Below the pieces are notes generated by a model, which was not told where the DNA came from, made no database searches, and saw nothing but the letters and a program-made list of their open reading frames with translations. A stretch of 59,941 nucleotides of DNA, the filler included, from Stramenopiles sp. TOSAG23-6 (Eukaryota): NCBI GenBank assembly GCA_900128565.1. It is 11 parts of 11 records of this genome, joined end to end, with 100 filler letters (N's around TTAATTAATTAA, not from the genome) between each part and the next. Parts side by side here need not be neighbours in the genome. Positions count along the whole stretch, not along the records: positions 38,296 to 43,633 come from LT636920.1; 10 more parts are not named here. One strand, written 5' to 3'. Position 1 is the stretch's first letter. Every line of letters begins with the position of its first letter. The position numbers and the translations under genes were made by a program. This document shows positions 22,574 through 59,255 of the stretch, one piece after another.

Positions 22574-22714
22574 AAGTATAGTATAGTTTATTTAGTCAAA
22601 TATCAAGATAAATTTTCAATATATCATTCATATAGTTTTATAAATTGTGCTTTATCAAATATTTCATAGAATTTTTTGTACCTAACATTTTTTTTTCCTT
22701 TTTTGAGTCTTCCA

Positions 22715-27559: not shown

Positions 27560-29095
27560 ATGACTGCTTCTTATCTTACGGATGATTATGTATGGCTCGT
27601 TGTTATGGGTGCGCTTGCGAGTTTCTCTGCTGCATTCGGCATTGGTGCTAATGACGTTGCAAACTCACTTGCTACGGCTGTTGGTTCCANAGCCATTACC
27701 AAAACGCAAGCCGTCTTTCTTGCGGCATTCTTCGAATTCTTTGGAAGTATTTTACTCGGGAACCATGTAACAAAGACTATTCGCAAAGGTATTGCNGACC
27801 AAGAATGCTTTGAAGACAATCCTGCTCTGCTCATGTATGGAATGATGTGTGTTCTTTTCGCTGTTGCAATCTGGCTTTACTTGGCGACTAAATGGAGAAT
27901 GCCTGTAAGTACAACTCATTCTTGTGTCGGTGGTATTGTTGGTATGACTATGGTATTAGTCGGTACCGGATGTGTTACCTGGTATAAAAAGAAAGATGAC
28001 TTCCCATTTGTTGGTGGTGTTGCTGGAATTGTCGTCAGTTGGTTTGTTGCTCCTGTGCTATCATGTGCCTTTGCAACGGTTCTCTTTTTGTTTGTTCGTA
28101 CATTCATTCTTCGATCTGAACACTCTTATGAACGTGCATATAAGTTTTATCCATTCCTCGTATTTGTAACACTGACCGTTTGTGGCCTTTTTATTATCTT
28201 TAAAGGAGCAAAAGGAACAGACCTTGATTTAAGTCTTGGTGAAGCCTTTGCTGTTTCTACAGGTTTTGCCTTTGTAGTTGCTATGGTAATGATACCAACT
28301 GTTCTACCTTGGATTCGTAGAAGAATTGATGAACAAATGGCAGAAAGAGAGAATGCTCTTGAAGCTGGNGAAAAACAAGTTGAAATGACTGAACCAGAAA
28401 AGAAAAACGTAGGTGTACTTAGNAAAATTTCTCATCATGTATCAAAGAATCTTAATAGAGATTCCCATGCTATTGTCCTCGAAGATGCAACAACGGCTGC
28501 NGTTCACGATAACTGTGAAGTATTTGATGAAAAAACTGAAATGTTTTTCAGGTATGTACAAGTATTTACTTGCTGTTGCGATAGTTTTTCTCATGGTGCA
28601 AATGACGTTGCTAACTCTATTGGTCCGTTTGCTGCAATTTATGTGGTTTATAATGCAGGAGAGGTTTCTAAGAAAAATGAACTTGGAGATGACGCATATT
28701 GGATTCTTGCTCTCGGTGCTGTTGGGATTGTAATTGGGTTAGCTATTTATGGTTACAAGATTATGGAAGTTCTTGGTACACAAATGGTGAAATGCACTCC
28801 TTCAAGAGGATTTTCTATTGAATTAGGTGCCGTTGCTGTAATCATTATGGGTACAAGACTCGGAATTCCACTTTCGACAACACATTGCCAAGTAGGTGCT
28901 ACGTGTGGTGTAGCCTGGTGTGAAGGTAGGCAGGGTATTAACTACAAAGTTCTTTTTACAGTTATAGCCGGATGGGTTCTCACTTTGCTTGTTGCCGGTG
29001 GAACTGCTGGAATCTTTTCTGCGATGGGAGCATATGCCCCAAGTGCACACGGAGTTACATTTGAGGGAATGAAAGTTGCGGTACCAGTTGCTTAG
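27560..29095 (+). CDS. PHO4: PHO4/PiT-family phosphate transporter
   Basis: Two GANDVANS signatures plus PVSTTHS and PLSTTHC motifs; many TM helices; intronless. Confidence 0.95.
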   Translation: MTASYLTDDYVWLVVMGALASFSAAFGIGANDVANSLATAVGSXAITKTQAVFLAAFFEFFGSILLGNHVTKTIRKGIXDQECFEDNPALLMYGMMCVLFAVAIWLYLATKWRMPVSTTHSCVGGIVGMTMVLVGTGCVTWYKKKDDFPFVGGVAGIVVSWFVAPVLSCAFATVLFLFVRTFILRSEHSYERAYKFYPFLVFVTLTVCGLFIIFKGAKGTDLDLSLGEAFAVSTGFAFVVAMVMIPTVLPWIRRRIDEQMAERENALEAXEKQVEMTEPEKKNVGVLXKISHHVSKNLNRDSHAIVLEDATTAXVHDNCEVFDEKTEMFFRYVQVFTCCCDSFSHGANDVANSIGPFAAIYVVYNAGEVSKKNELGDDAYWILALGAVGIVIGLAIYGYKIMEVLGTQMVKCTPSRGFSIELGAVAVIIMGTRLGIPLSTTHCQVGATCGVAWCEGRQGINYKVLFTVIAGWVLTLLVAGGTAGIFSAMGAYAPSAHGVTFEGMKVAVPVA

Positions 29096-29254
29096 TTTAG
29101 TNTAGTGTTACAATTTAGGGATAATTTATACATCGATGTATTATTGTTTTAATTGAAAACTGTATATCAATTTGACTTTGGAAATATACAACATATTCGT
29201 ATATGAAAAAATAAAAGAATTCCTAACTATATTATACATTTTTATTGTTTTATA

Positions 29255-30748
29255 TCAATCAATATCATCATTGTGAATACATAACACTTCATTACCTATT
29301 TGAGCAGTATGTATTGAAAAACTTTCAAGAAGAATCTTTTTTTTACTAAATACACAGGAAAAGAATAAAATGATTGATATACCAATAGCTGATAGTAAAA
29401 CACCATTTGCCATCAATATTCCTTCTTGTTTATTCGGTGCATTTTCCATCAAAATGTTACAGATCCATAAAAAGAAAACACCAGCAAATTGTGCAACACA
29501 ATTTAGTACACCAGCAACTACAGCTTCATCAGCTTGAAGGGCAAGTGAAGTAGCTAATTCAAATCCACTGGACAAAACTGCTGCAATAAAGAATCCAGTA
29601 AAAAAAAGTGACGAATACAAAAGTATAACACAATACCCATCACACATAAAATGCGTTCCCTCAAATTTTTGAGCATATACAACAGAATATCCAAAGAAAA
29701 CTGTACCAAGTAAGGTACCTACTAGTAGAAAACCCATTATTCTTAGTTGATTGAAATTGAATATATCGAATAATTTCCCGCTGCTATATGATCCAAATAC
29801 CCATATTGTGAAAAAAGTATTTTTTTTTGTAAAATTTGTTTGGTAAAAAAAATTGACAAAAAAAATAAATTCGAAATTGAAAAAAAAAATAAAACATACC
29901 CCAAACATAATAAAACCAATGCCGAGCCATCCTATACGAAGATTTGAAGTATATGCAGGTAGAAATTGTGCAAGAAATGTTGCAATTCCATAAAATACAC
30001 CTACATTTAATCCATATACAATTGAAAAACTAATAAGGCTACATGAAGAAGTAAAGACTTGAAGTGATTCAATATATCCTGCTTTATGTAAATTCCTCAA
30101 TGAACCATTTGATTCCATAACTATTGGTGGGGTTGGTGGAGAATTTGCCATTAAAAAAAAAATAAGCAATAATGCAAGTAGAGCGATAAGGCATTGAATA
30201 CTTAGATAAATGCTCAACTCCTGAGTAGAGTATATATCAAATACAACTCCAGAGCCTAGACCAAAAGCAGTTCCAAGATTATTAGCAAAAACACCAATTG
30301 ATGTGGCTAAACAACGTTCGTGTTCACCAAACCAAGAATGAGAAAGAAAAGGAGGTATCGCTAGTGTGAATGTTTGTGCAAGTGCTGATATAAAGGTACC
30401 AATGTATACCATCTTATACGTGGAAGAGTAATACCAACGAATGAAAGATCCTGAAAAATTAAAAAGTGCCCCAATCAGTAGTCCTTTTCTCATCCCGACT
30501 CTGTTGATGAACCACAAAGCTGGAATTGATGCTGGAATATATGTGTACATGAAAACCATTGAAAGATTATTAACATCTGCATATGAAGTTTTCCAAATTG
30601 TTGAAACTTCAGTAACCAGCGGAGAAAACGTTATCCATTGCCAACCATTAGATAAGGTCAAAAGAGCAAAGCTAAAGAGAACGAACCACCGCTTGGAGTA
30701 AAGTACTGGATTAGCGGTCTCCTGACCAAGAAGCGAATCGTGATTCAT
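29255..30748 (-). CDS. MFS transporter, FLVCR/SLC49-like, with an in-frame 99-nt intron (29801-29899)
   Basis: YSKRWFVL, QWITFSP and WFGEHERCLATSIG motifs. The Phe-rich insert VCFIFFF...FFTIW is a family intron. Confidence 0.85.
   Translation of the reverse strand: MNHDSLLGQETANPVLYSKRWFVLFSFALLTLSNGWQWITFSPLVTEVSTIWKTSYADVNNLSMVFMYTYIPASIPALWFINRVGMRKGLLIGALFNFSGSFIRWYYSSTYKMVYIGTFISALAQTFTLAIPPFLSHSWFGEHERCLATSIGVFANNLGTAFGLGSGVVFDIYSTQELSIYLSIQCLIALLALLLIFFLMANSPPTPPIVMESNGSLRNLHKAGYIESLQVFTSSCSLISFSIVYGLNVGVFYGIATFLAQFLPAYTSNLRIGWLGIGFIMFGVCFIFFFNFEFIFFVNFFYQTNFTKKNTFFTIWVFGSYSSGKLFDIFNFNQLRIMGFLLVGTLLGTVFFGYSVVYAQKFEGTHFMCDGYCVILLYSSLFFTGFFIAAVLSSGFELATSLALQADEAVVAGVLNCVAQFAGVFFLWICNILMENAPNKQEGILMANGVLLSAIGISIILFFSCVFSKKKILLESFSIHTAQIGNEVLCIHNDDID
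29801..29899 (-). other. GT-GG intron (family member), in frame and stop-free
   Basis: ttt gGG|GTATGT...TACCAAAC...TTCACAATATGG|gta ttt; removal restores the TM helix IMFG|VFGSYSSG. Confidence 0.7.
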
Positions 30749-31118
30749 TCTTCAAAGTATTCTAGATAATGTCAATATGTGACATGCCACTGTTGGAAAA
30801 TCTATTATTTTTGTTTCGAATTTTTGTATGTCCTCAAATAGGTAATTATTAGATTTGACACACTTGACTTGACCGATTTGGGATGACCAACAAAAAAAAA
30901 TTGTCAAATACAAAATTTGAAATTTGGACGATTTGAATTTAGTTCACTTCGAGTGTGATATCATTTATCTTTTTTTCACATTCACTTATATTTGATTTTG
31001 TATGTAAATAATAAAGAAATAAAATACAAATATTTTTTGATTTTGTTTTTAATAGTAGTACTGTATATAGACAATCTTGCAAATGCAATAAAAAGTCATA
31101 TATATATAAGGGTTAGGG

Positions 31119-32539
31119 TTACAAACAGTTTCCAACTTTTACACATAATTCTGCCATTCTATTTGAATATCCCCATTCATTATCATACCAAATATATACT
31201 TTTACTTGAGTACCATTGACAACCATTGTAGATGCGGCATCAACAATACCTGAACGAGGATCATTTGTATAATCCGTAGATACTAAAGGTTTGACCTCGA
31301 TGTATTGTGAAAAAATATTTCAAAAAATTCTAAAAATTTTGTTAGGTACAAAATTTCGTATGAAAAAATATTGATGAAAAAATCTGATGGACAACGTACA
31401 CACCCAAAATGCCTTTTTTAGACCCGGATGATGCAGCATTTGTGAGAACTTGATTTACTTCACATGTTGTTGTTTCTCTCTGCATTTCAAATACACAATC
31501 TGTGAGTGAAGCGTTTGCCACAGGTACGCGAACGGCATCTGTATTTGGAAAAAATATTTCGAATTCAAAATTTGTTAGGTTTGGAATTTTCATGTAAAAT
31601 TTTTGTTTTTTTCATGTAATTTTTTTTTAAATTCATTATGAAAACATACATCCATTTAGTTTACCTGCAAGTTCTGGTATGACGTCACCGATAGCTTTGG
31701 CTGAACCAGTGCTTGTAGGAAACATAGACGCTGGAACAACACCTCGTGATCTACGAATATATATTATAAAAAATATTTCAAAATATTTCAAAAATTTGTT
31801 AGGTACAAAAAATTCTATACAAAAAAAAATAGATAAAAAATTATAATGAAAAACAAACATCTTTTTGTGCTGGCCAGTGTGCATCAAGAACCGTTTGTGT
31901 GTTTGTGACATTATGAATTGTAGTAATCATGCCATGAGAAATTCCGATGGTATCATGAAGAACTTGAATGACTGGAGCAATACAATTTGTAGTACAAGAT
32001 GCTGCGGTTATTATATGATCTGTTTTTGGATTATACTTACAATCATTAACTCCCATAACAACATTCAACACGCCTTCCTTTAATGGGGCAGCTACGATTA
32101 CTTTTTTTACTCCATGTTGAAATAGTGGAGCTAACTTTGATTTTGTTTTAAATTTTCCAGAACACTCAAGGACAATGTCACAATTGCTCCAGTCGACTGA
32201 CTCAAGTGAAGTTTCAGTAGATAGACTTACTTCATTTCCATTAACAGTAAACGAGTTTTCTGAAAACTGTATACCACTTTCATAATCAGTCGTCGCATAT
32301 ATATCATTCTTACCATTTGTATTAGGAATCCAACGACCGTGAATACTATCCCACTCTAATAAATATGCAGAAGTCTCTGGAGTTGATTTAGGTTCATTGA
32401 CGTGTATTATTGTTAATTCATTCGAAGTTGTTTTGTCAGAAAGAGCCCGAAATACTAAACGGCCAATACGACCAAAACCATTGATTCCTACTTTGATAGG
32501 CGATGACTTTGAATTTGAAAAAGTTCCAATTTCTGGCAT
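31119..32539 (-). CDS. GAPDH: Glyceraldehyde-3-phosphate dehydrogenase, ArsJ-associated/gap3-like type; introns 31759-31858 (GT-AT), 31539-31649 (GT-AG), 31300-31399 (GT-AT)
   Basis: [74 protein letters not shown] and WYDNEWGY motifs. Confidence 0.92.
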
Positions 32540-32855
32540 GCTACTTGAGTCAAAGAGAAAAAAAAAATACACTGTGTGGTAAGTCCAAGCTCTAAGATTG
32601 TGTTTTTGGTGAACAAAAAAAAGATTTAAAAATCGACTTTTTGACTACTAGTCGAAAGTTGAAAACTTGAAATCGAAATTGGACTTGGTGGCGCCAAGGT
32701 TTGGCGCCAAAAATGTAGGGTACCAAAATATATCTTGTACCCGAAGTCCACAGGANNNNNNNNNNNNNNNNNNNNNNNNNNNNNNNNNNNNNNNNNNNNT
32801 TAATTAATTAANNNNNNNNNNNNNNNNNNNNNNNNNNNNNNNNNNNNNNNNNNNN

Positions 32856-37859: not shown

Positions 37860-38305
37860 GAGGCCGGGAGGCTGAATAATATATATAAAAAATTATTTTG
37901 ATTAGTTTACTCAATGAATGGACAAAATAGTTTGATGGTCATCAATTTTTAAAACTATTATCCTTTCCTACGGTTTTTTACGAGTACACATTGACTTGAT
38001 TGAATATAAAAATAATTATCAAATATTTCTTTTTGACATGGTATATCAATATATCTCGAACCAAGCAAGGGAATATTTATACGTATGCATGGCATGCATG
38101 CGGAAAGAATAAAATTTAAAAAAAAAAAAAATCGAGGTACTAGTAGTAGTCCAAGGTACAAAATTTTTATAAAAAACCAAAAAAAAAAAAAAAAANNNNN
38201 NNNNNNNNNNNNNNNNNNNNNNNNNNNNNNNNNNNNNNNTTAATTAATTAANNNNNNNNNNNNNNNNNNNNNNNNNNNNNNNNNNNNNNNNNNNNTTTTT
38301 AAAAT

Positions 38306-38345
<40 letters not shown>

Positions 38346-38418
38346 GTTCGAAAAATTTGTACGTAACGAATTGTTTATCTAAAAAAAAAAAAAAAAAAAA
38401 TATTTTTTCACAATACTT

Positions 38419-39788
38419 GTTCAAAGATTCTTTCAGGAAGAAAGCAGGAAAATTCCAGAGAATTTTATTATCTGTGTTAAGGGCATACTCGGTGTACGAT
38501 CCTTCCCTGGGCTACGTTTGTTTTCTGATGAATTTCAAATTTATGTTTTTTTTTTCGTAGGAAATTCTGTACCTAAGATTTTTTTTTCTAGAATATTTTT
38601 TCACAAAATATTGCCAAGGTATGAATTGGTTATGTGGAATAATTGTGCTTACCCATAATGAAAAAATGAAAAAAAATATAGAAACCAAAAGAAAAGATGA
38701 TTGTACTGAGTATACTTTGAACTCTTTAAAAATTAGTGTTAATACTAATGATATGAAAGAAAATGTAACTTTCAATTTCAATTTTTTTTTTTTTTTTTTT
38801 TTTGTAAAATCTATAGTAATTACTAACAAAAAAAACATTTTTTTTTGAAATATTTTTTTTTTTTTGTATATTTCATTGTAATACCTAACAAAAAAAAACA
38901 TTTTTTTTTGAAATATTTTTGACATCATCTCATTCAAGTATTGGTGTGTTTCCTTCAAACCCAAATGTTGAAGTACTAACAGGTGGTGATTTTTCTCAGA
39001 AATTAGGTTTTTCAATAGATTCGAAACTTCCGATGGAACACGAAAAAACAAATGAAAATGAAGCAGAAGCAGAAGCAGCAAACCCTAACCCTAATCAGCC
39101 TCTAGAAAATGATACAATGATGATTTCAGATAATGATAGCATTGTTCCAATTGGTCTTTGCCTTACTAGAGAAGAATGGTGTACAGCACTTGAAGTATTT
39201 ACACTCGTACTTTTTTATCATTTCAATTTTTTATCTAAATATTTTTTCATACGAAATTTTGTACCTAACAAATTTTTTAGAATTTTTTTGAAATATGTTT
39301 TCACTTGATATACATCTGCCATAATGGAAAGACCTTCGTTTGGATTAAGAGGTATGTATGTTCGTGGAATGCCAAAACTTGAAGATCTCTTTATTACATT
39401 AGATATCTTAACTTTACGTCACTTACCCAATCTTCATAAACATATAAAAAAAGCGAGGTGTAGCGCTGGGGTTCCTGTTCAACCCTCGTGCAGACTTTAT
39501 GCCGTTCAATGGTTTCTTTCTTTATTTTGTCGTGATTTCGATCTTAGTCTTGGCTTAAAAGTATGGGATGCTGTGATGTATCGTGGAATTTCCACACTTT
39601 TACGTGTTGCCGTGGCTGTACTTAAAATGGCAGAGCCTGAGTTGATGAAAATGAATTTCGAAGGCATTTTACACCATTTACGAACGGATTTACCAAAGAC
39701 AATTCGTGTAGAACAACTCTGGTCTGAAACATTAAAATTAGACATTACAGAGTCAGTATTGAATAACCTTTTGAATGAAGTTAGATGA
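38419..39788 (+). CDS. Rab-GAP TBC-domain protein (5'-truncated); introns 38516-38611, 38765-38930, 39207-39311
   Basis: VLRAYSVYDPSLGY|CQGMNWL, YAVQWFLSLF and LKVWD motifs. Confidence 0.85.
38516..38611 (+). other. GT-AT intron splitting the TBC GYCQG motif
   Basis: ggc tac|GTTTGT...GTACCTAAG...CACAAAATAT|tgc caa ggt; both neighbouring AGs give frameshifts. Confidence 0.8.
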
Positions 39789-43575: not shown

Positions 43576-43797
43576 ATGTATTTTGGAAAAATATTTGAAA
43601 AAAAAAAACTAAAATTTGTTAGGTACAAAATTTNNNNNNNNNNNNNNNNNNNNNNNNNNNNNNNNNNNNNNNNNNNNTTAATTAATTAANNNNNNNNNNN
43701 NNNNNNNNNNNNNNNNNNNNNNNNNNNNNNNNNTAGGTACAAAATTTCGTACGAAAAAAAAAATTTAGACAAAAAATTGAAAAAAAATAAAACATAC

Positions 43798-44482
43798 ATA
43801 GTGTCGATGGACTGGAACTGGGGGGTAATTCCCCTAATAGCAAAGTGGTAGAACAAGAAATAGAATGAGACGTATGATTATTTTGAAGACTTTGTGATGT
43901 GTGATTATTTTGAAGACTTTGTCTTTGTTTCTTTTGCTTCTTTTGAATGTATTGCGTTTGTTGATTTTGTTGATTTTGTTGATTTTGTTTAGTAGGGATT
44001 GGACTTTTGTTTTGAAAAGAAGAACGTGCGAGTACAGTACGTTGCTGATCGGAAAAAGAAGTGGGCTTATAATTGGTTGACTCGTTATGTAGAGAATACC
44101 CCTTGTGTATGTTATATTGACGCTGGTTCGTTACTCTATTCATATTTGAGGGGTCGTTTTCCTGAGAATATTGTCTCGGTGACGTTTGCATGGCATACAC
44201 ATGGTTCCCTCCGAGATGTTTCTGAGAAGATTTTGCAGAAAAACCATACCCGTTTGTAGATCTTTCAGATTCAATAGATCCATTATTGGCATGTAATTTC
44301 GGTCGATAACTCCAAGATCGTTGCGTTGATGAGTTGGACTTTCCAACGCTTCGTTGTAGAGGAGACAAATTTTGGAAATGACGCTGATCTGTTTCATATT
44401 TTATATTACCTTGCTCCTGTTGAAGAGGACGAGAAAAAGTTGTTGGTTGAACTACTCCTTTCTCTGCATCATGTGTTGACAT
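43798..44482 (-). CDS. First exon of a Gln/Ser/Asn-rich low-complexity protein (copies 49234-49918, 54670-55354)
   Basis: ATG-initiated ORF ending at a family donor (ctAT|GTATGT) at 43797. Confidence 0.6.
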
Positions 44483-45154
44483 GATATTCTATCGTTTGGA
44501 TAGAAAATGTAATGTTCTTTTTCAACAACACAATACTTTACTATAGACAACGTCAATAAAATATACTCAAAATAGTAAAAAGGCGCGATGTTTACGAAAC
44601 TTGGTTCAAAAAAAATTGCGCAAGTTTTTTTTTTGAGTTATTTTTGAGTTATTTTGAAAATAATTCAACAAAATTTTGGAACAAACCTGAGACGCCAATT
44701 TTTAGCTCTCCTAGGGTTAGGTTAGGTGCCTAGGGTTAGGGTTCCTGGTGTTTTGGTCAGCCCTTCATTTTTTTTTCGCGAAAAAAATTCAACTCTGTGT
44801 TTCTGCTCTGCGCACGAATTTTCCTTCAACGTAGACCTTTTTTCTATCACTCAAGGAGTACGTAATTCTCTTAATTACTTTATTATTATATACATCATCG
44901 ATTAACTTATCTTGTTGACGATCATTTCATTGATTCTTAAGAAGAGTATGATTGTCTTTCCTTGTTTTTTTGCAATTTGTTTTTCTTCATGAACCAAGTC
45001 ATGACTTTCTTCCTCCGTTTTGTTGTCGTGTCTGTTTTTCGGTTTGAACCTGGCATTCTTTCCTTTGATATAGTGTTTTTTTACTCTAGCATTTCACAGT
45101 GTATGTCTAACCCTTTCCAAATTTCTTATATTCTGAAAAAGCAGTACTCTTACA

Positions 45155-45361
45155 ATGGACGTTAACGAACTTGTATTCAAACCTCTCTTCCAATTCGGTT
45201 TAGATTCGTACCGCCTGGTTCAAAAATGCACCAAGCCAGACCGCACTGAATTTACCCGTGTATTTTTCGCTACTAGCTGTGGGTTCTTTATTATGGGATT
45301 TATTGGTTTCTTTGTCAAACTTGTTCATATTCCTATAAATAATATTATCGTAGGGCGTTAA
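45155..45361 (+). CDS. SEC61G: Sec61 gamma subunit
   Basis: [17 protein letters not shown]...[25 protein letters not shown]. Confidence 0.95.
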
Positions 45362-45769
45362 AACACATGTGAAAAAAAAAAAAAAAAAAACAGGATTTTT
45401 CGTACGAAATTTCGTACCTAACGAAAAAAAAAATCGACGTCTAGTCTATCCTTTTTTTTTTGTGATTATTTGATAAATAAACAACACTCTAGAGAATGTA
45501 GAGACATTATTTTATACTATGTATATATATACATGATACACAAGGAAAATAGCAACATGAAAAGAATGTATATCAACATGAAAAAAATATATATTTTATT
45601 ACACTTCATTTAAAAGTACAACAAGGATAATCAACCCTAACCCTAGTACAAAGACATTCATTGTAGGGCTAGTGGCCTCTTTTTGAGTACTCATTTTGTG
45701 TAATGAGTTCATTGTGTTACTTTATATGTTTTAGATATAATAGATTTTTTCTATGTTACATTCTCCAAA

Positions 45770-47518
45770 TTATACATTTTTGGACGTTTCTTCCATTTCA
45801 ATGTCAAAGTCGTCAGGTACATTTCTCAAAATCCAGCGGTCAATTTCATCTTCCATGTCGTCTTTGTCGTGTATCGAAATATCTCCAACTTGAGCCGCTC
45901 TTTGTGCTTTCAACTTCTTCGCTTCCTCTTCAAAACCCCGGACAGAACGCATATGACTTGTTTCGTTTACTTCAGTCAAGAATTCCTTTATTTTGTGTGC
46001 TGTTGGTGTGGTCGGTCGTAGTGGACTTTGTTCCAATGAACTTTCCAGCGCTGCATTACTATTCTTGAGAACAGTTTTATCAGAAAATGTAGATGCAATT
46101 GCACGATCAATACCTAAAACATGACCACCTAATATATTTCCGACGGCATCACCACGTTCAATAGGTAAATACAACTGCGAATCAATTGGGTTGGAGTGGG
46201 TATCAAAGTCAAGAAATTCGGAAATTACAGTATCCGATATATCACTAAAACTATCATACTTTTTCATAGGATTAGATACACTAGATAATATAGCTCGGGA
46301 GACAGAAAACTCCATTTGAAGACATTCTGCAATGGAATATTCTACTTTTTTACAACCCCCTATACGTTGCATTGCGTGAGTTAGTTTTAGAGCTAGAGGG
46401 GAACGCTCATGGAGTAACACTTGAAGAGTTTGACTCGCCCAGTCAGCTAACGAATCGCCTGCAGAACCTGAAGCAAGTTGTTCCAATTGTTCGATAATTT
46501 CCTCAATACTGTCTTGATTGAAACAAGTATCAATTAATTCTAAATGATTTGACAACCAAGTCTCTGGTATAACTGCAGTATCACCTGTAATAGTGTCTCC
46601 ATGCGTACCGTATGAAATTGCAGTATCAAAACTGGCTTCAACTAGGCAATCTGCTAGTGTTGAGTTCATACGACTTGATATATTATCAATATCGTCTCTA
46701 AGAAATCCTATAGAACCACTTAATACGGGTGTGTAATGCGTGGCAATACCAGTATGAAGAGCATCCGCTCCAGTTACCCGGGCCCCTGTTAACGATAACC
46801 ATAGACCTATACCAGACATTCGATCTTCATTACCACGAAACTGAAGTCGAGGAAGATTATATGATGCACCCATATCTGGTATCCATCCTATTTCTGTCTC
46901 TGGTAATTGAAATATTGTCTTATCAGTAGCAATGCGAACACGATTTAATAAGGAAAGTGAAGCGGCAGACCCGGATGTTAAGCCATCAAGAAGTGTAATC
47001 ACTGGTGTCCCGGATGTCGCTAAACGATAGCTAAGATAATTCTCCTGTCTTAATATGTCAATAGCTTTATCCAATGAACCATTTTGTACCATTTGTACGA
47101 GTGCAGGATGATCACGGCCTCTACAAAACACATCAGAACGTTGGTCATTGCTTCCTTGATAACCACCAAGGAAAATAGCCAAAATTTGAGAATTTGGTTC
47201 CCAAAGTTCATGAAGGCGTGTTAGTTGCTGAACGGTAGAAAGATCAAGAACATTATCTCCATTGTTCGTATTTACTTCTGCCATTCTCCATGTAGCATTC
47301 CCTTCGGAAATTAGAACCTTCTCGTCTGATCGGAAAGGTTGTCGGACAACTTCTTCATCGCGAGATGAGAGAAGACCACGAGACAGAGGATGTTTTTCTT
47401 CATCTTTGTTTGTGTCTATATTACTCGTACTGAAACTACACGATGATAAAGCTGTCGAGTGACGTAAGTGTGATGCGGATGTGCGCGTAAATGTTCGAAC
47501 TAATTGTGTGGAAGACAT
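45770..47518 (-). CDS. HIBCH: 3-hydroxyisobutyryl-CoA hydrolase-like (crotonase/ECH_2), mitochondrial
   Basis: RIATDKTIFQLPETEIGWIPDMGASYNLPRL, LSLTGARVTGADALHTGIATHY and SPLALKLT motifs; presequence. Confidence 0.8.
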   Translation of the reverse strand: MSSTQLVRTFTRTSASHLRHSTALSSCSFSTSNIDTNKDEEKHPLSRGLLSSRDEEVVRQPFRSDEKVLISEGNATWRMAEVNTNNGDNVLDLSTVQQLTRLHELWEPNSQILAIFLGGYQGSNDQRSDVFCRGRDHPALVQMVQNGSLDKAIDILRQENYLSYRLATSGTPVITLLDGLTSGSAASLSLLNRVRIATDKTIFQLPETEIGWIPDMGASYNLPRLQFRGNEDRMSGIGLWLSLTGARVTGADALHTGIATHYTPVLSGSIGFLRDDIDNISSRMNSTLADCLVEASFDTAISYGTHGDTITGDTAVIPETWLSNHLELIDTCFNQDSIEEIIEQLEQLASGSAGDSLADWASQTLQVLLHERSPLALKLTHAMQRIGGCKKVEYSIAECLQMEFSVSRAILSSVSNPMKKYDSFSDISDTVISEFLDFDTHSNPIDSQLYLPIERGDAVGNILGGHVLGIDRAIASTFSDKTVLKNSNAALESSLEQSPLRPTTPTAHKIKEFLTEVNETSHMRSVRGFEEEAKKLKAQRAAQVGDISIHDKDDMEDEIDRWILRNVPDDFDIEMEETSKNV

Positions 47519-47855
47519 AATCACACCAACTTGTTGAATACACTACAAAAGTAATCTGGATATTTTAGTTTTGTTGTGTGTGTTTGCGACTGACTTTTGA
47601 TTAATTCTAATGCGCCACGTGCTCGAAGTTAAAATTTTTGACTCGTGTGTTACCCGGTTCCAAAAATAAAGCTGCTTTGATCCATTGAATTCAGATCGTA
47701 AACCGTAAAATAAAATTGACAAAAAAATGTCATAAAAATTAAATACTACTACGTCAAAGACCGAAAAGACTATTTCCCTGTAAGGGGTAAAGACATACAC
47801 AATACATACAGTAACATTATTTAAATTCACTTCATTTTGAGCAATATTTTTAGCC

Positions 47856-48383
47856 ATGAATGGTCAAATCATGTTTTTCTATCTCTTCATTTTGGGATGG
47901 ATCAGTTCTAGTGCAATACACGTTGAAAAGAATTATATTTGTTTGAATCACAATGAAAATCCTGATAATACTTGCTCTGTTCACAAAGACAGAATTTCTT
48001 GTACGTCTTCGTATGATACAACACATAAGAAGTGTTTATATGTGTATAGAAAAGCCGCACAATTAAATGAAACATGTTGTCCAAATAAGAAAGAAGATAA
48101 TGGGAAATGCGCCGAAAAAATAGGTGGTCTACAGTGTGATGCAAATTTGTACTGCTACGTTTCCACTTTTCGTGGTGACGTTGGCACCTGCGTCTTACGA
48201 AGCAGTGTTGCTTTTATTGGCCAGACATGTTGCAAAACAAAAACAGAAGTATGTACAGCACCACACTGTGCGTCAGGATTGACTTGTTATTCTAGCCCAT
48301 CTTTTTTTGGTACGTGTGGTCGATCGTTTCCATCTCTTCGAAGTCGAAATGGAGAAAACAGTACACTATTTTCCTGGTTTTGA
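47856..48383 (+). CDS. Small secreted Cys-rich protein
   Basis: Signal peptide, many Cys, and two related CC...C...C...L.CY...GTC modules. Confidence 0.7.
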   Translation: MNGQIMFFYLFILGWISSSAIHVEKNYICLNHNENPDNTCSVHKDRISCTSSYDTTHKKCLYVYRKAAQLNETCCPNKKEDNGKCAEKIGGLQCDANLYCYVSTFRGDVGTCVLRSSVAFIGQTCCKTKTEVCTAPHCASGLTCYSSPSFFGTCGRSFPSLRSRNGENSTLFSWF

Positions 48384-50590
48384 ATTTAAAAAAAAAATAA
48401 TACTAGAGAACTGTGTGTAACAAGATCGTTACAATCCCAATATACATTGGATAACTTGGAAGCTTGTGCATTTGTATACAAAATGATAAAATAATACATT
48501 TGCAACTTACATTTCATTCAAATTTCATATTTATTCTTTTATCCTTAGGGTTAGGGTAAAAAGACACATCAGAGGGAAGAAAGATTATTTCTCTCTGGTG
48601 TTTTTTTTCCCTTTACATTATCTATGTGGTTCATTTTGGAACTGTAGCTAGATTGCCTACAATGCAACATAAAGAAAAAACAACAAAAACAAATTTAAAT
48701 TTAAATTTAAATTTTTTTATAAAACAATTAGAAAAAACAAAAACAAATTCATTTATTTTTGTATTTTTGTATGTAACAATTAGAAAAAACAGAAATAATA
48801 AAAACAAAATTAAATTTTTTTTTAATTCACAAATCAACATGTTAACATAATGTTTAAGTGGTCAAGTTTTACACTTCACAAACAAAAAAAGAACAAAAAA
48901 AATACAATTTTTACATTTTGTCATTTTTTTTTGGACATTACAAATTTTTATTGAGTTTCTAATATTTTTGTTACAATACCAGCCGCAATGTATTGTAAAA
49001 AAATATTTTTTTTTTGTAATTTTTTTGTTAGGTACAAAATTTTTATAAAAAACCAAAAAAAAAAAAAAANNNNNNNNNNNNNNNNNNNNNNNNNNNNNNN
49101 NNNNNNNNNNNNNTTAATTAATTAANNNNNNNNNNNNNNNNNNNNNNNNNNNNNNNNNNNNNNNNNNNNTAGGTACAAAATTTCGTACGAAAAAAAAAAT
49201 TTAGACAAAAAATTGAAAAAAAATAAAACATACATAGTGTCGATGGACTGGAACTGGGGGGTAATTCCCCTAATAGCAAAGTGGTAGAACAAGAAATAGA
49301 ATGAGACGTATGATTATTTTGAAGACTTTGTGATGTGTGATTATTTTGAAGACTTTGTCTTTGTTTCTTTTGCTTCTTTTGAATGTATTGCGTTTGTTGA
49401 TTTTGTTGATTTTGTTGATTTTGTTTAGTAGGGATTGGACTTTTGTTTTGAAAAGAAGAACGTGCGAGTACAGTACGTTGCTGATCGGAAAAAGAAGTGG
49501 GCTTATAATTGGTTGACTCGTTATGTAGAGAATACCCCTTGTGTATGTTATATTGACGCTGGTTCGTTACTCTATTCATATTTGAGGGGTCGTTTTCCTG
49601 AGAATATTGTCTCGGTGACGTTTGCATGGCATACACATGGTTCCCTCCGAGATGTTTCTGAGAAGATTTTGCAGAAAAACCATACCCGTTTGTAGATCTT
49701 TCAGATTCAATAGATCCATTATTGGCATGTAATTTCGGTCGATAACTCCAAGATCGTTGCGTTGATGAGTTGGACTTTCCAACGCTTCGTTGTAGAGGAG
49801 ACAAATTTTGGAAATGACGCTGATCTGTTTCATATTTTATATTACCTTGCTCCTGTTGAAGAGGACGAGAAAAAGTTGTTGGTTGAACTACTCCTTTCTC
49901 TGCATCATGTGTTGACATGATATTCTATCGTTTGGATAGAAAATGTAATGTTCTTTTTCAACAACACAATACTTTACTATAGACAACGTCAATAAAATAT
50001 ACTCAAAATAGTAAAAAGGCGCGATGTTTACGAAACTTGGTTCAAAAAAAATTGCGCAAGTTTTTTTTTTGAGTTATTTTTGAGTTATTTTGAAAATAAT
50101 TCAACAAAATTTTGGAACAAACCTGAGACGCCAATTTTTAGCTCTCCTAGGGTTAGGTTAGGTGCCTAGGGTTAGGGTTCCTGGTGTTTTGGTCAGCCCT
50201 TCATTTTTTTTTCGCGAAAAAAATTCAACTCTGTGTTTCTGCTCTGCGCACGAATTTTCCTTCAACGTAGACCTTTTTTCTATCACTCAAGGAGTACGTA
50301 ATTCTCTTAATTACTTTATTATTATATACATCATCGATTAACTTATCTTGTTGACGATCATTTCATTGATTCTTAAGAAGAGTATGATTGTCTTTCCTTG
50401 TTTTTTTGCAATTTGTTTTTCTTCATGAACCAAGTCATGACTTTCTTCCTCCGTTTTGTTGTCGTGTCTGTTTTTCGGTTTGAACCTGGCATTCTTTCCT
50501 TTGATATAGTGTTTTTTTACTCTAGCATTTCACAGTGTATGTCTAACCCTTTCCAAATTTCTTATATTCTGAAAAAGCAGTACTCTTACA

Positions 50591-50797
50591 ATGGACGTTA
50601 ACGAACTTGTATTCAAACCTCTCTTCCAATTCGGTTTAGATTCGTACCGCCTGGTTCAAAAATGCACCAAGCCAGACCGCACTGAATTTACCCGTGTATT
50701 TTTCGCTACTAGCTGTGGGTTCTTTATTATGGGATTTATTGGTTTCTTTGTCAAACTTGTTCATATTCCTATAAATAATATTATCGTAGGGCGTTAA
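50591..50797 (+). CDS. SEC61G: Sec61 gamma (copy 2)
   Basis: Identical to 45155-45361. Confidence 0.85.
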
Positions 50798-51205
50798 AAC
50801 ACATGTGAAAAAAAAAAAAAAAAAAACAGGATTTTTCGTACGAAATTTCGTACCTAACGAAAAAAAAAATCGACGTCTAGTCTATCCTTTTTTTTTTGTG
50901 ATTATTTGATAAATAAACAACACTCTAGAGAATGTAGAGACATTATTTTATACTATGTATATATATACATGATACACAAGGAAAATAGCAACATGAAAAG
51001 AATGTATATCAACATGAAAAAAATATATATTTTATTACACTTCATTTAAAAGTACAACAAGGATAATCAACCCTAACCCTAGTACAAAGACATTCATTGT
51101 AGGGCTAGTGGCCTCTTTTTGAGTACTCATTTTGTGTAATGAGTTCATTGTGTTACTTTATATGTTTTAGATATAATAGATTTTTTCTATGTTACATTCT
51201 CCAAA

Positions 51206-52954
51206 TTATACATTTTTGGACGTTTCTTCCATTTCAATGTCAAAGTCGTCAGGTACATTTCTCAAAATCCAGCGGTCAATTTCATCTTCCATGTCGTCTT
51301 TGTCGTGTATCGAAATATCTCCAACTTGAGCCGCTCTTTGTGCTTTCAACTTCTTCGCTTCCTCTTCAAAACCCCGGACAGAACGCATATGACTTGTTTC
51401 GTTTACTTCAGTCAAGAATTCCTTTATTTTGTGTGCTGTTGGTGTGGTCGGTCGTAGTGGACTTTGTTCCAATGAACTTTCCAGCGCTGCATTACTATTC
51501 TTGAGAACAGTTTTATCAGAAAATGTAGATGCAATTGCACGATCAATACCTAAAACATGACCACCTAATATATTTCCGACGGCATCACCACGTTCAATAG
51601 GTAAATACAACTGCGAATCAATTGGGTTGGAGTGGGTATCAAAGTCAAGAAATTCGGAAATTACAGTATCCGATATATCACTAAAACTATCATACTTTTT
51701 CATAGGATTAGATACACTAGATAATATAGCTCGGGAGACAGAAAACTCCATTTGAAGACATTCTGCAATGGAATATTCTACTTTTTTACAACCCCCTATA
51801 CGTTGCATTGCGTGAGTTAGTTTTAGAGCTAGAGGGGAACGCTCATGGAGTAACACTTGAAGAGTTTGACTCGCCCAGTCAGCTAACGAATCGCCTGCAG
51901 AACCTGAAGCAAGTTGTTCCAATTGTTCGATAATTTCCTCAATACTGTCTTGATTGAAACAAGTATCAATTAATTCTAAATGATTTGACAACCAAGTCTC
52001 TGGTATAACTGCAGTATCACCTGTAATAGTGTCTCCATGCGTACCGTATGAAATTGCAGTATCAAAACTGGCTTCAACTAGGCAATCTGCTAGTGTTGAG
52101 TTCATACGACTTGATATATTATCAATATCGTCTCTAAGAAATCCTATAGAACCACTTAATACGGGTGTGTAATGCGTGGCAATACCAGTATGAAGAGCAT
52201 CCGCTCCAGTTACCCGGGCCCCTGTTAACGATAACCATAGACCTATACCAGACATTCGATCTTCATTACCACGAAACTGAAGTCGAGGAAGATTATATGA
52301 TGCACCCATATCTGGTATCCATCCTATTTCTGTCTCTGGTAATTGAAATATTGTCTTATCAGTAGCAATGCGAACACGATTTAATAAGGAAAGTGAAGCG
52401 GCAGACCCGGATGTTAAGCCATCAAGAAGTGTAATCACTGGTGTCCCGGATGTCGCTAAACGATAGCTAAGATAATTCTCCTGTCTTAATATGTCAATAG
52501 CTTTATCCAATGAACCATTTTGTACCATTTGTACGAGTGCAGGATGATCACGGCCTCTACAAAACACATCAGAACGTTGGTCATTGCTTCCTTGATAACC
52601 ACCAAGGAAAATAGCCAAAATTTGAGAATTTGGTTCCCAAAGTTCATGAAGGCGTGTTAGTTGCTGAACGGTAGAAAGATCAAGAACATTATCTCCATTG
52701 TTCGTATTTACTTCTGCCATTCTCCATGTAGCATTCCCTTCGGAAATTAGAACCTTCTCGTCTGATCGGAAAGGTTGTCGGACAACTTCTTCATCGCGAG
52801 ATGAGAGAAGACCACGAGACAGAGGATGTTTTTCTTCATCTTTGTTTGTGTCTATATTACTCGTACTGAAACTACACGATGATAAAGCTGTCGAGTGACG
52901 TAAGTGTGATGCGGATGTGCGCGTAAATGTTCGAACTAATTGTGTGGAAGACAT
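51206..52954 (-). CDS. HIBCH: HIBCH-like (copy 2)
   Basis: Identical to 45770-47518. Confidence 0.75.
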   Translation of the reverse strand: MSSTQLVRTFTRTSASHLRHSTALSSCSFSTSNIDTNKDEEKHPLSRGLLSSRDEEVVRQPFRSDEKVLISEGNATWRMAEVNTNNGDNVLDLSTVQQLTRLHELWEPNSQILAIFLGGYQGSNDQRSDVFCRGRDHPALVQMVQNGSLDKAIDILRQENYLSYRLATSGTPVITLLDGLTSGSAASLSLLNRVRIATDKTIFQLPETEIGWIPDMGASYNLPRLQFRGNEDRMSGIGLWLSLTGARVTGADALHTGIATHYTPVLSGSIGFLRDDIDNISSRMNSTLADCLVEASFDTAISYGTHGDTITGDTAVIPETWLSNHLELIDTCFNQDSIEEIIEQLEQLASGSAGDSLADWASQTLQVLLHERSPLALKLTHAMQRIGGCKKVEYSIAECLQMEFSVSRAILSSVSNPMKKYDSFSDISDTVISEFLDFDTHSNPIDSQLYLPIERGDAVGNILGGHVLGIDRAIASTFSDKTVLKNSNAALESSLEQSPLRPTTPTAHKIKEFLTEVNETSHMRSVRGFEEEAKKLKAQRAAQVGDISIHDKDDMEDEIDRWILRNVPDDFDIEMEETSKNV

Positions 52955-53291
52955 AATCACACCAACTTGTTGAATACACTACAAAAGTAATCTGGATATT
53001 TTAGTTTTGTTGTGTGTGTTTGCGACTGACTTTTGATTAATTCTAATGCGCCACGTGCTCGAAGTTAAAATTTTTGACTCGTGTGTTACCCGGTTCCAAA
53101 AATAAAGCTGCTTTGATCCATTGAATTCAGATCGTAAACCGTAAAATAAAATTGACAAAAAAATGTCATAAAAATTAAATACTACTACGTCAAAGACCGA
53201 AAAGACTATTTCCCTGTAAGGGGTAAAGACATACACAATACATACAGTAACATTATTTAAATTCACTTCATTTTGAGCAATATTTTTAGCC

Positions 53292-53819
53292 ATGAATGGT
53301 CAAATCATGTTTTTCTATCTCTTCATTTTGGGATGGATCAGTTCTAGTGCAATACACGTTGAAAAGAATTATATTTGTTTGAATCACAATGAAAATCCTG
53401 ATAATACTTGCTCTGTTCACAAAGACAGAATTTCTTGTACGTCTTCGTATGATACAACACATAAGAAGTGTTTATATGTGTATAGAAAAGCCGCACAATT
53501 AAATGAAACATGTTGTCCAAATAAGAAAGAAGATAATGGGAAATGCGCCGAAAAAATAGGTGGTCTACAGTGTGATGCAAATTTGTACTGCTACGTTTCC
53601 ACTTTTCGTGGTGACGTTGGCACCTGCGTCTTACGAAGCAGTGTTGCTTTTATTGGCCAGACATGTTGCAAAACAAAAACAGAAGTATGTACAGCACCAC
53701 ACTGTGCGTCAGGATTGACTTGTTATTCTAGCCCATCTTTTTTTGGTACGTGTGGTCGATCGTTTCCATCTCTTCGAAGTCGAAATGGAGAAAACAGTAC
53801 ACTATTTTCCTGGTTTTGA
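53292..53819 (+). CDS. Secreted Cys-rich protein (copy 2)
   Basis: Identical to 47856-48383. Confidence 0.65.
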   Translation: MNGQIMFFYLFILGWISSSAIHVEKNYICLNHNENPDNTCSVHKDRISCTSSYDTTHKKCLYVYRKAAQLNETCCPNKKEDNGKCAEKIGGLQCDANLYCYVSTFRGDVGTCVLRSSVAFIGQTCCKTKTEVCTAPHCASGLTCYSSPSFFGTCGRSFPSLRSRNGENSTLFSWF

Positions 53820-56026
53820 ATTTAAAAAAAAAATAATACTAGAGAACTGTGTGTAACAAGATCGTTACAATCCCAATATACATTGGATAACTTGGAAGCT
53901 TGTGCATTTGTATACAAAATGATAAAATAATACATTTGCAACTTACATTTCATTCAAATTTCATATTTATTCTTTTATCCTTAGGGTTAGGGTAAAAAGA
54001 CACATCAGAGGGAAGAAAGATTATTTCTCTCTGGTGTTTTTTTTCCCTTTACATTATCTATGTGGTTCATTTTGGAACTGTAGCTAGATTGCCTACAATG
54101 CAACATAAAGAAAAAACAACAAAAACAAATTTAAATTTAAATTTAAATTTTTTTATAAAACAATTAGAAAAAACAAAAACAAATTCATTTATTTTTGTAT
54201 TTTTGTATGTAACAATTAGAAAAAACAGAAATAATAAAAACAAAATTAAATTTTTTTTTAATTCACAAATCAACATGTTAACATAATGTTTAAGTGGTCA
54301 AGTTTTACACTTCACAAACAAAAAAAGAACAAAAAAAATACAATTTTTACATTTTGTCATTTTTTTTTGGACATTACAAATTTTTATTGAGTTTCTAATA
54401 TTTTTGTTACAATACCAGCCGCAATGTATTGTAAAAAAATATTTTTTTTTTGTAATTTTTTTGTTAGGTACAAAATTTTTATAAAAAACCAAAAAAAAAA
54501 AAAAANNNNNNNNNNNNNNNNNNNNNNNNNNNNNNNNNNNNNNNNNNNNTTAATTAATTAANNNNNNNNNNNNNNNNNNNNNNNNNNNNNNNNNNNNNNN
54601 NNNNNTAGGTACAAAATTTCGTACGAAAAAAAAAATTTAGACAAAAAATTGAAAAAAAATAAAACATACATAGTGTCGATGGACTGGAACTGGGGGGTAA
54701 TTCCCCTAATAGCAAAGTGGTAGAACAAGAAATAGAATGAGACGTATGATTATTTTGAAGACTTTGTGATGTGTGATTATTTTGAAGACTTTGTCTTTGT
54801 TTCTTTTGCTTCTTTTGAATGTATTGCGTTTGTTGATTTTGTTGATTTTGTTGATTTTGTTTAGTAGGGATTGGACTTTTGTTTTGAAAAGAAGAACGTG
54901 CGAGTACAGTACGTTGCTGATCGGAAAAAGAAGTGGGCTTATAATTGGTTGACTCGTTATGTAGAGAATACCCCTTGTGTATGTTATATTGACGCTGGTT
55001 CGTTACTCTATTCATATTTGAGGGGTCGTTTTCCTGAGAATATTGTCTCGGTGACGTTTGCATGGCATACACATGGTTCCCTCCGAGATGTTTCTGAGAA
55101 GATTTTGCAGAAAAACCATACCCGTTTGTAGATCTTTCAGATTCAATAGATCCATTATTGGCATGTAATTTCGGTCGATAACTCCAAGATCGTTGCGTTG
55201 ATGAGTTGGACTTTCCAACGCTTCGTTGTAGAGGAGACAAATTTTGGAAATGACGCTGATCTGTTTCATATTTTATATTACCTTGCTCCTGTTGAAGAGG
55301 ACGAGAAAAAGTTGTTGGTTGAACTACTCCTTTCTCTGCATCATGTGTTGACATGATATTCTATCGTTTGGATAGAAAATGTAATGTTCTTTTTCAACAA
55401 CACAATACTTTACTATAGACAACGTCAATAAAATATACTCAAAATAGTAAAAAGGCGCGATGTTTACGAAACTTGGTTCAAAAAAAATTGCGCAAGTTTT
55501 TTTTTTGAGTTATTTTTGAGTTATTTTGAAAATAATTCAACAAAATTTTGGAACAAACCTGAGACGCCAATTTTTAGCTCTCCTAGGGTTAGGTTAGGTG
55601 CCTAGGGTTAGGGTTCCTGGTGTTTTGGTCAGCCCTTCATTTTTTTTTCGCGAAAAAAATTCAACTCTGTGTTTCTGCTCTGCGCACGAATTTTCCTTCA
55701 ACGTAGACCTTTTTTCTATCACTCAAGGAGTACGTAATTCTCTTAATTACTTTATTATTATATACATCATCGATTAACTTATCTTGTTGACGATCATTTC
55801 ATTGATTCTTAAGAAGAGTATGATTGTCTTTCCTTGTTTTTTTGCAATTTGTTTTTCTTCATGAACCAAGTCATGACTTTCTTCCTCCGTTTTGTTGTCG
55901 TGTCTGTTTTTCGGTTTGAACCTGGCATTCTTTCCTTTGATATAGTGTTTTTTTACTCTAGCATTTCACAGTGTATGTCTAACCCTTTCCAAATTTCTTA
56001 TATTCTGAAAAAGCAGTACTCTTACA

Positions 56027-56233
56027 ATGGACGTTAACGAACTTGTATTCAAACCTCTCTTCCAATTCGGTTTAGATTCGTACCGCCTGGTTCAAAAATG
56101 CACCAAGCCAGACCGCACTGAATTTACCCGTGTATTTTTCGCTACTAGCTGTGGGTTCTTTATTATGGGATTTATTGGTTTCTTTGTCAAACTTGTTCAT
56201 ATTCCTATAAATAATATTATCGTAGGGCGTTAA
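56027..56233 (+). CDS. SEC61G: Sec61 gamma (copy 3)
   Basis: Identical to 45155-45361. Confidence 0.85.
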
Positions 56234-56641
56234 AACACATGTGAAAAAAAAAAAAAAAAAAACAGGATTTTTCGTACGAAATTTCGTACCTAACGAAAAA
56301 AAAAATCGACGTCTAGTCTATCCTTTTTTTTTTGTGATTATTTGATAAATAAACAACACTCTAGAGAATGTAGAGACATTATTTTATACTATGTATATAT
56401 ATACATGATACACAAGGAAAATAGCAACATGAAAAGAATGTATATCAACATGAAAAAAATATATATTTTATTACACTTCATTTAAAAGTACAACAAGGAT
56501 AATCAACCCTAACCCTAGTACAAAGACATTCATTGTAGGGCTAGTGGCCTCTTTTTGAGTACTCATTTTGTGTAATGAGTTCATTGTGTTACTTTATATG
56601 TTTTAGATATAATAGATTTTTTCTATGTTACATTCTCCAAA

Positions 56642-58390: not shown

Positions 58391-58727
58391 AATCACACCA
58401 ACTTGTTGAATACACTACAAAAGTAATCTGGATATTTTAGTTTTGTTGTGTGTGTTTGCGACTGACTTTTGATTAATTCTAATGCGCCACGTGCTCGAAG
58501 TTAAAATTTTTGACTCGTGTGTTACCCGGTTCCAAAAATAAAGCTGCTTTGATCCATTGAATTCAGATCGTAAACCGTAAAATAAAATTGACAAAAAAAT
58601 GTCATAAAAATTAAATACTACTACGTCAAAGACCGAAAAGACTATTTCCCTGTAAGGGGTAAAGACATACACAATACATACAGTAACATTATTTAAATTC
58701 ACTTCATTTTGAGCAATATTTTTAGCC

Positions 58728-59255
58728 ATGAATGGTCAAATCATGTTTTTCTATCTCTTCATTTTGGGATGGATCAGTTCTAGTGCAATACACGTTGAAA
58801 AGAATTATATTTGTTTGAATCACAATGAAAATCCTGATAATACTTGCTCTGTTCACAAAGACAGAATTTCTTGTACGTCTTCGTATGATACAACACATAA
58901 GAAGTGTTTATATGTGTATAGAAAAGCCGCACAATTAAATGAAACATGTTGTCCAAATAAGAAAGAAGATAATGGGAAATGCGCCGAAAAAATAGGTGGT
59001 CTACAGTGTGATGCAAATTTGTACTGCTACGTTTCCACTTTTCGTGGTGACGTTGGCACCTGCGTCTTACGAAGCAGTGTTGCTTTTATTGGCCAGACAT
59101 GTTGCAAAACAAAAACAGAAGTATGTACAGCACCACACTGTGCGTCAGGATTGACTTGTTATTCTAGCCCATCTTTTTTTGGTACGTGTGGTCGATCGTT
59201 TCCATCTCTTCGAAGTCGAAATGGAGAAAACAGTACACTATTTTCCTGGTTTTGA
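58728..59255 (+). CDS. Secreted Cys-rich protein (copy 3)
   Basis: Identical to 47856-48383. Confidence 0.65.
   Translation: MNGQIMFFYLFILGWISSSAIHVEKNYICLNHNENPDNTCSVHKDRISCTSSYDTTHKKCLYVYRKAAQLNETCCPNKKEDNGKCAEKIGGLQCDANLYCYVSTFRGDVGTCVLRSSVAFIGQTCCKTKTEVCTAPHCASGLTCYSSPSFFGTCGRSFPSLRSRNGENSTLFSWF

Follow-up and report, generated by a model that had tools for sequence, protein, structure and literature searches.

Introns that appear to end in AT behind a 3' block, and a U1 snRNA complementary to their donors, in Stramenopiles sp. TOSAG23-6

Results

Genes and introns of the window

The window analysed here (59,941 nucleotides of Stramenopiles sp. TOSAG23-6) consists of contigs of about 5.4 kb joined by N-TTAATTAATTAA-N linkers and drawn from an assembly of 21 Mb in 6236 contigs. 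The contig at 10990-16365 is a mirror duplication and those at 43734-59941 are identical copies, as is typical of amplified single-cell assemblies; counts made over the genome are inflated because of such duplicated contigs. The contig at 16466-21841, with about 50% GC and an apparently canonical GT-AG intron, is likely a contaminant or a chimera, and the sequence near 16980 resembles what we take to be an Illumina adapter.

A TBC (RabGAP) gene with three complete introns occupies positions 38296-39788 (Table 1). When all three are excised, 38765-38930 included, the frame is open for 335 codons and has a terminal stop only. Intron 38516-38611 (GTTTGT...CACAAAATAT) contains a branch block at 38553-38577 with the putative branch A at 38576 and an acceptor block at 38590-38611; the equivalent elements of intron 39207-39311 lie at 39245-39269, 39268 and 39290-39311. 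We spliced 61 acceptor positions (-30 to +30) in silico and scored each against TBC homologues. Shift 0 came out top for intron 38516-38611, joining 38515 to 38612 to give GYCQGMN, which is the end that a first-pass annotation of this DNA had assigned. That annotation had also held that the AGs 20 nt upstream and 7 nt downstream of 38611 shift the frame, and both run into stops. The upstream one is a textbook acceptor, TTTTTTTTCTAG, whose TAG ends at 38591, 15 nt past the putative branch A; the downstream AAG belongs to the next exon and ends at 38618. The exact end (CT) of intron 38765-38930 was placed by frame and motif, as it lies in a variable region where homology is uninformative. Composite introns with duplicated branch and acceptor blocks, such as this one, are common, and the last complete block is apparently used.

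On the minus strand, positions 31100-32540 hold a GAPDH gene of the ArsJ type, flanked by an MFS gene and a PiT phosphate transporter. Its closest match is P0002, a gene model of the same sequence with a source label that indicates a MAST-3 marine stramenopile; the model omits RRSRG and two open coding stretches. The other top named matches are mostly bacterial. All five junctions tested, three in GAPDH and two in TBC (38516-38611 and 39207-39311), fit the homologues best at the motif-defined end.

Table 1 Features of the TBC and GAPDH genes in the window
Feature	Position	Strand	Basis and remarks
Family intron, 3' part, cut by contig edge	38296..38418	+	Branch-like block 38347-38367; acceptor block ends CACAATACTT; end placed by motif only
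TBC (RabGAP) exon, C-terminal ...DPSLGY	38419..38515	+	Pfam RabGAP-TBC, E 5e-4; homologue P0242
Family intron GT...AT, 96 nt	38516..38611	+	Best of 61 acceptor shifts against homologues
TBC exon, N-terminal CQGMNW, contains skipped AAG ending 38618	38612..38764	+	Homologue fit and frame
Composite family intron GTAAC...GACATCATCT, 166 nt, two branch/acceptor blocks	38765..38930	+	TBC frame stays open
TBC exon, variable insert, ends EEWCTALEVFTL	38931..39206	+	Homologue fit and frame
Family intron GTACT...CACTTGATAT, 105 nt	39207..39311	+	Ungapped best alignment to 6 homologues
Last TBC exon and stop	39312..39788	+	Pfam RabGAP-TBC, E 4.9e-21
GAPDH intron 1, GT...AT, T run shorter by one base	31759..31858	-	Best shift against 118 homologues, restores KDIRRSRG
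GAPDH intron 2, GT...AG, AG exactly at motif-defined position	31539..31649	-	Homologue fit
GAPDH intron 3, GT...AT	31300..31399	-	Homologue fit; AGs at -30, +4 and +17 all hit stops

Four seawater RNA runs from four studies were compared with positions 28505-32750 of the window, a region that includes the GAPDH gene. They cover the phosphate transporter and pieces of exons, the transporter beside GAPDH being present in polyA RNA at near identity. Within this region no RNA contig bridges any junction, and the six RNA joints listed stem from repeats shared among family copies and are artefacts. In run X8, unspliced family intron sequence from many loci piles up on 31300-31400 at very high summed depth; it could be DNA, pre-mRNA or stable excised introns.

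The 3' end is set by a block within the intron

Scanning 790 kb (115 loci and the window, with overlaps) yielded 135 distinct introns, called with the terminal bases unscored. They come from 303 unique branch matches, the remainder of which are composite, truncated, weak in the donor, antisense or intergenic. The donor dinucleotide is GT in 111, GC in four and AT in 13 of the 135. Eighty introns with one open frame on each side allowed a frame test. The motif-defined end kept the frame in 71 of them, with about 27 expected by chance, against 18 for the first AG at least 8 nt past the branch A and 22 for the nearest AG; among the nine that fail, at least one is a mis-called donor and not all are explained. 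An AG stands between branch and end in 40 of the 135 introns, and 16 YAGs lie at least 12 nt beyond the branch. These results bear out the first-pass proposal that the acceptor is positioned by a 3' element inside the intron while AGs are skipped.

AATATTT is present in 116 introns. Counted from the AATA of the 3' block, the distance to the end is 16 nt in 107 of these and 15 nt in seven; where the T run is one base shorter, as in GAPDH intron 1, the end tracks the local word CANAATAY-NN. A distance of about 33-43 nt from the branch A had been suggested; it is 35 and 43 nt for the two well-supported TBC introns and bimodal over all 135 introns, at 33-36 and 41-45 nt. Since the branch distance is bimodal and the AATA distance fixed, the end is set by the intron's own 3' block and not by the branch point. 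The idea of the 3' motif as a ruler thus holds in that the end is fixed behind the block, but a strict ruler is too strong, because the end shifts with the T run: the 3' cis element is real and is a recognition block with slight slack. Two other details of the earlier proposal did not survive. A (C/T/G)AC triplet 7 nt before the end accounts for 50 of 135 introns, positions -10 to -8 reading CAA in 62, CAC in 39, CAT in 15, TAC in 10 and GAC in one, and the palindrome TTTCGTACGAAA, likewise put forward as a ruler, lies upstream of the branch point at a variable distance from the end and is intact in 47 of 135.

Introns almost universally terminate in AG. Here, among 3381 genome-wide matches to the 3' block AAATATTTTTYCAMAATAC-NN, a number inflated by duplicated contigs, AT follows in 2832 and AG in only 64, so that these are not canonical GT-AG introns, though they work in a U2-like manner. 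The remaining dinucleotides found after AATATTTTTYCAMAATAC are AC or AA (127) and those with a non-A base (358). Upstream of the terminal pair, the logo has A at -4 in 90%, and C or T at -3 in 77% and 18%. The intron boundaries, the skipped AGs and the fixed position behind the 3' block are confirmed as far as DNA can show them.

The terminal dinucleotide copies the end of the upstream exon

The last two bases of the introns repeat the last two bases of the preceding exon. Identity between exon end and intron end is found in 114 of 135 introns at -1 (permutation mean 102.2) and in 110 at -2 (87.7), with p 1e-4 for each. No covariation was seen at -3 or -4 in the 135 introns, nor any in the form of an inverted repeat in 99 introns. 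A targeted sample (100 loci fetched, 60 introns called) contained 25 introns without A at -2, of which 20 copy the exon end exactly (TT 11, GT 6, CT 2, GA 1); eight of its 12 AC-ending introns are preceded by an exon ending in AC. Introner surveys call target-site duplications, in the cases they describe, from locus-specific terminal repeats of this type. The copied dinucleotide is a putative 2-bp target-site duplication, the signature of an old introner family, and the introns would end in AT because their last two bases copy the site into which each was inserted.

Some ends depart from this rule: 22 AT-ending introns follow an exon end other than AT, and of the 23 AG-ending introns 18 come after an exon that ends in AT. 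The latter would mean that AG ends arose later by T-to-G change, and together the two figures require later mutation if a 2-bp duplication was the starting point. Rough scaling gives about 50 T-to-G changes versus at most 32 T-to-C changes. These small samples hint at a lasting preference for AG, provided that it is correctly placed.

Exact 16-mer branch blocks number 6431 in the genome, inflated by duplicated contigs, against one for the control. Identity to the nearest neighbour among the 135 copies has a median of 86% and a maximum of 95.6%, by which measure the family is old. Decayed introns retain the donor and the 3' word and lose the branch block. The inverted repeat at the element ends is only 4 bp long (GTAT...ATAC) and lies inside the duplication; terminal inverted repeats are not obligatory for every introner. 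No autonomous transposon with matching ends was found in the incomplete assembly; two kinds of DDE_Tnp_4 ORF are present, with ends that mismatch or are not visible, and a Harbinger-like element has GGCC-type ends unlike those of the family introns. Outside coding introns the branch/palindrome block is also found by itself, at window positions 22672, 35459, 42361 and 45408 (plus strand) and at about 1050-1100 of a further locus (L071); these settings include the space between the convergent gene pair of a Harbinger-like transposon that four contigs carry. A metagenome search with the intron pattern returned one locus, a chance match in an unrelated sulfatase gene with GT-AG introns; viral loci with this pattern and metagenome loci with the U5-U2 tandem pattern described below each numbered zero. 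Neither an empty site nor a presence/absence polymorphism was observed.

A variant U1 fits the donor

Genes for U5, U2, U1 and U4 stand head to tail within 640 bases of one contig (C1146; L005 9-645), and U6 lies on another (C3740). The spacers are of a few to about 20 bases, and the four may form one transcript. The only U1 found is that of C1146 and its duplicate C6122. It matches RF00003 over model positions 1-166 (E 2.5e-12), with 54.1 bits below the cut-off of 69.5, between U2 and U4, and the match spans the stem-loops and the Sm site; the loops for U1-70K and U1A have also diverged. The gene starts AAACGUACAUGG, where the Rfam consensus has AUACUUACCUGG. Its 5' end, AAACGUACAU, carries three changes from the consensus, each matching the donor AU|GUAYGUUU: they lie opposite U at intron +7, C or U at intron +4 (G pairs with either) and U at exon -1. 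Nucleotides 1-10 form a continuous duplex with donor positions -2 to +8 for both major donors, and 3 and 8 of 200 shuffles do as well. Averaged over the 135 introns, the variant U1 makes 10.1 of 11 pairs and the consensus U1 7.3; the figures for +4 and +7 are partly circular because both positions were used to call donors. Exon -1 played no part in donor calling, and there pairing is 0.85 with the variant versus 0.04 with the consensus. The variant U1 is predicted to be expressed and to function in splicing.

U2 GUAGUA, U5 loop I and U6 ACAGAGA are all standard, and the branch consensus GTACCTAAC could pair with U2 GUAGUA. The first-pass annotation had also invoked a variant snRNA acting at the 3' end. 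An altered U1 does exist, but it fits the donor, and none of U1, U2, U4, U5 and U6 pairs with the 3' block better than shuffles do. As no known snRNA pairs with the block, a protein probably reads it.

At least two fully canonical GTAAGT...CAG introns keep the frame on contigs that also bear family introns: one in a TBC gene (L018 6182-6285, plus strand) and one in a C2-domain gene (L017 6250-6350, minus strand), both candidate ancestral introns. Several family-like AG-ending introns without a duplicated end keep the frame on the same contigs. Judged by these frames, GT-AG splicing is predicted to persist as a minority. Pairing between the canonical introns and the variant U1 is poor, so the assembly, being incomplete, may lack a second U1; a search for a canonical one with AHACTTACCTG gave 22 matches versus 30 in the control, and no RNA family in the 20 of the 22 loci that were scanned.

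Splicing proteins

Prp8, U2AF2 (one), Slu7, Cwc24, Prp38, Prp19 and Cwc15 were found. U2AF1 is absent from 16 CCCH matches (11 of 15 loci were translated, and the other four overlap those) and was also missed by a peptide pattern. The genome search found neither SF1 nor Prp18, and no clear U1C. SKIP was missed by the search as well, so the non-detection of U2AF1, SF1 and Prp18 is only suggestive of absence. In yeast, as described in PMC10711555, non-YAG 3' sites that lie downstream of U tracts become usable once Prp18 is lost.

The alpha-finger of Prp8 is nearly identical to the human one. [quoted passage not shown] The near-human finger fits the presence of a pyrimidine at -3 and of A at -2, both of which the family introns have kept. 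Elsewhere in Prp8 (L030 4086-9998, minus strand) MASGSTTF reads MTAGQATF, RGATVD reads RGATCN and RTDFKQYQVLKQNPF reads RKHFRQYIQYRTDPF. Against 119 homologues, 51 near-invariant positions are listed at which this protein departs from the rest, some of them at the ragged end; this is a lead only.

Discussion

We consider it likely that the introns are of the U2 type and belong to one old introner-like family, with ends made by a 2-bp duplication, a retuned U1 and an acceptor defined by the 3' block. The host would be a marine stramenopile of the MAST-3 type. The element, GTAYGTTTT ... TTTTCGTACGAAATTTTGTACCTAAC ... GAAATATTTTTYCAMAATAC, would have brought its own donor, branch site and 3' recognition block and would have inserted, presumably by transposition and mostly at AT, duplicating 2 bp of the target. 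This pair would then have become the last two bases of the intron, so that splicing restores the gene. The rewritten 5' end of U1 would recognise the donor, having been retuned later to the dominant donor with the target base included. Branching would take place at the adenosine of CCTAAC through the unchanged U2. The 3' site, as the reading frames show, is taken from the CANAATAY word behind the AAATATTTTT block and not by a scan to the first AG. A protein, for example a retuned U2AF2 complex, is the most likely reader of the block. Second-step docking may keep the pyrimidine at -3 and the A at -2 and relax only the G at -1.

A more far-reaching version, which we think rather unlikely, is that the introner invasion rewrote the major spliceosome: its sole U1 would be fitted to the donor and the AT target, the AG-checking arm (U2AF1, SF1, Prp18) lost or remodelled, and the 3' site set by the 20-nt block, with the terminal AU perhaps recognised by A9-U10 of U1. 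If this were true, the rewritten spliceosome would amount to a natural AG-to-AU swap of the splicing code.

The likeness of the introns might also be explained without any mobile family, if a retuned spliceosome imposed long cis signals and selection kept them alike. The confinement of divergence to A/T tracts with all three blocks conserved, the pattern of loss in decayed introns, the lack of copies more than 95.6% identical, and AG-ending introns in a thiolase and an NDR kinase gene that have family-type signals and no duplicated end would all fit. A fixed signal, however, cannot yield the locus-specific matches TT/TT, GT/GT, CT/CT and AC/AC, and three family introns in a GAPDH gene with otherwise bacterial top matches suggest intron gain; selection as the whole explanation is therefore improbable. 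Selection on the blocks is compatible with an introner origin and probably acts as well. The register of the junctions raises a different question, since a cut two bases further 5' would give introns NN-GTAYGT...AATAC that end in AC. With a duplicated pair both registers produce the same mRNA, and the A at -4 and C at -3 would suit this reading. At the 33 junctions where the pairs are discordant (one of them a mis-called donor), however, in-frame stops number zero in the GT register, four in the -1 register and two in the -2 register. U6 ACA pairs with intron +4 to +6, and the standard U6 ACAGAGA thus sets +1 at G; the U1 register indicates GT too. The donor logo contains neither a U12-type ATATCC donor nor ATATCCTT, and we hold introns of the AT-AC kind to be very improbable. 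A coupling between A at +1 and C at -1, suspected earlier, was dropped, A+1 being unenriched in the AC-ending introns of the targeted sample (p 0.31).

Recognition of the 3' end by an RNA, in the manner proposed for U1 and the AG in fission yeast, would call for a dedicated small RNA, or for U1 acting through the A9-U10 that it has gained. U1 with CU reportedly suppressed 3' AG mutations in S. pombe (Reich et al. 1992), and the change of C9 to A turns this CU into AU, complementary to the AU end. The same change is already explained by the U at exon -1, about 16% of the intron ends are not AT, and the 3' block gives no pairing above shuffles, a result confined to the five snRNAs, as the complement of the block matches thousands of introns. 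Such a reader seems very unlikely. The least credible proposal is removal by a non-spliceosomal route, at the DNA level, or ends governed by intron RNA structure, be it donor/acceptor pairing or a branch-to-end hairpin that hides AGs. Donor and acceptor do form imperfect inverted repeats (ATGTAT...ATACAT), and one RNA run contains unspliced family sequence at great depth. Yet folding from branch to end is no better than in shuffles (median z -0.2; z < -2 in 12 of 135), and the donor/acceptor pairing raised in the first-pass annotation finds no favour, with a median of -2.7 kcal/mol against -9.2 for donor and U1 and no compensatory change at +4/-6 or +1/-3. U1 matches the donor, moreover, and GC donors occur as they do in U2 introns.

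The introner-like family proposed here can be set beside several known systems, as far as the published accounts at hand describe them. The larvaceans Fritillaria borealis and F. pellucida have non-canonical U2 introns derived from transposons. A 3' AT is common there too (34% and 44%), the three bases ahead of the donor recur where the intron ends (YAY), canonical introns are a minority and the major spliceosome is retained (PMC13326754). Their 5' ends, however, are diverse (AG/AC, AG/AT), whereas the donors here stay GT; they adapt by U2AF duplication and m6A with unspecialised U1 5' ends, whereas here the U1 sequence is changed, one family with long fixed blocks dominates, and one U2AF2 is present with U2AF1 undetected (PMC13326754). 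The introners of Chrysochromulina, which bring the 5' site with them, likewise comprise many related introns in which a locus-specific terminal duplication supplies the 3' site and no TIR is clear; there a 4-bp duplication yields AG, whereas here 2 bp yield AT, the copies are old and the host U1 matches (bioRxiv 10.1101/2022.06.06.494994). The present family would accordingly file under introners that take their 3' site from the duplication, with mobility presumed. As in this genome, the 5' end of U1 in Entamoeba and Mastigamoeba has been altered and is fully complementary to an atypical, extended donor, but there the change concerns intron positions in an intron-poor lineage; here the exon -1 base is involved, the genome is intron-rich and the AG is missing (bioRxiv 10.1101/2022.06.08.495308). 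By the same account, 69 Saccharomycotina with GUAUGU donors kept a standard U1. ISL2EU (PHIS) transposons share the 2-bp AT target-site duplication (PMC4482050). Their A|AT|T context, however, is not seen here (A at exon -3 in 24%; first exon base G in 69 and T in 32 of 135), nor is a clear TIR or a detectable HTH_Tnp_4 seen, and the PHIS transposases found lack these ends.

Our literature search returned no report of GT-AT introns or of a changed U1 in MAST-3, though survey supplements could list the family. The main text of the introner surveys at hand mentions neither MAST nor stramenopiles, and PMC5778133 mentions introns in its methods only.

Public gene models of Stramenopiles sp. TOSAG23-6 are wrong, as the GAPDH model P0002 exemplifies. 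After the larvacean tunicates, this would be a second, independent lineage whose introns mostly lack a terminal AG, and its solution would be a different one, with a changed U1 that follows the site at which a mobile intron inserts. It would be a natural genome in which the roles of -3, -2 and -1 in docking of the 3' site are separated, it would allow the long-standing idea of U1 as reader of the 3' dinucleotide to be tested, and it would tie intron gain to the evolution of the spliceosome.
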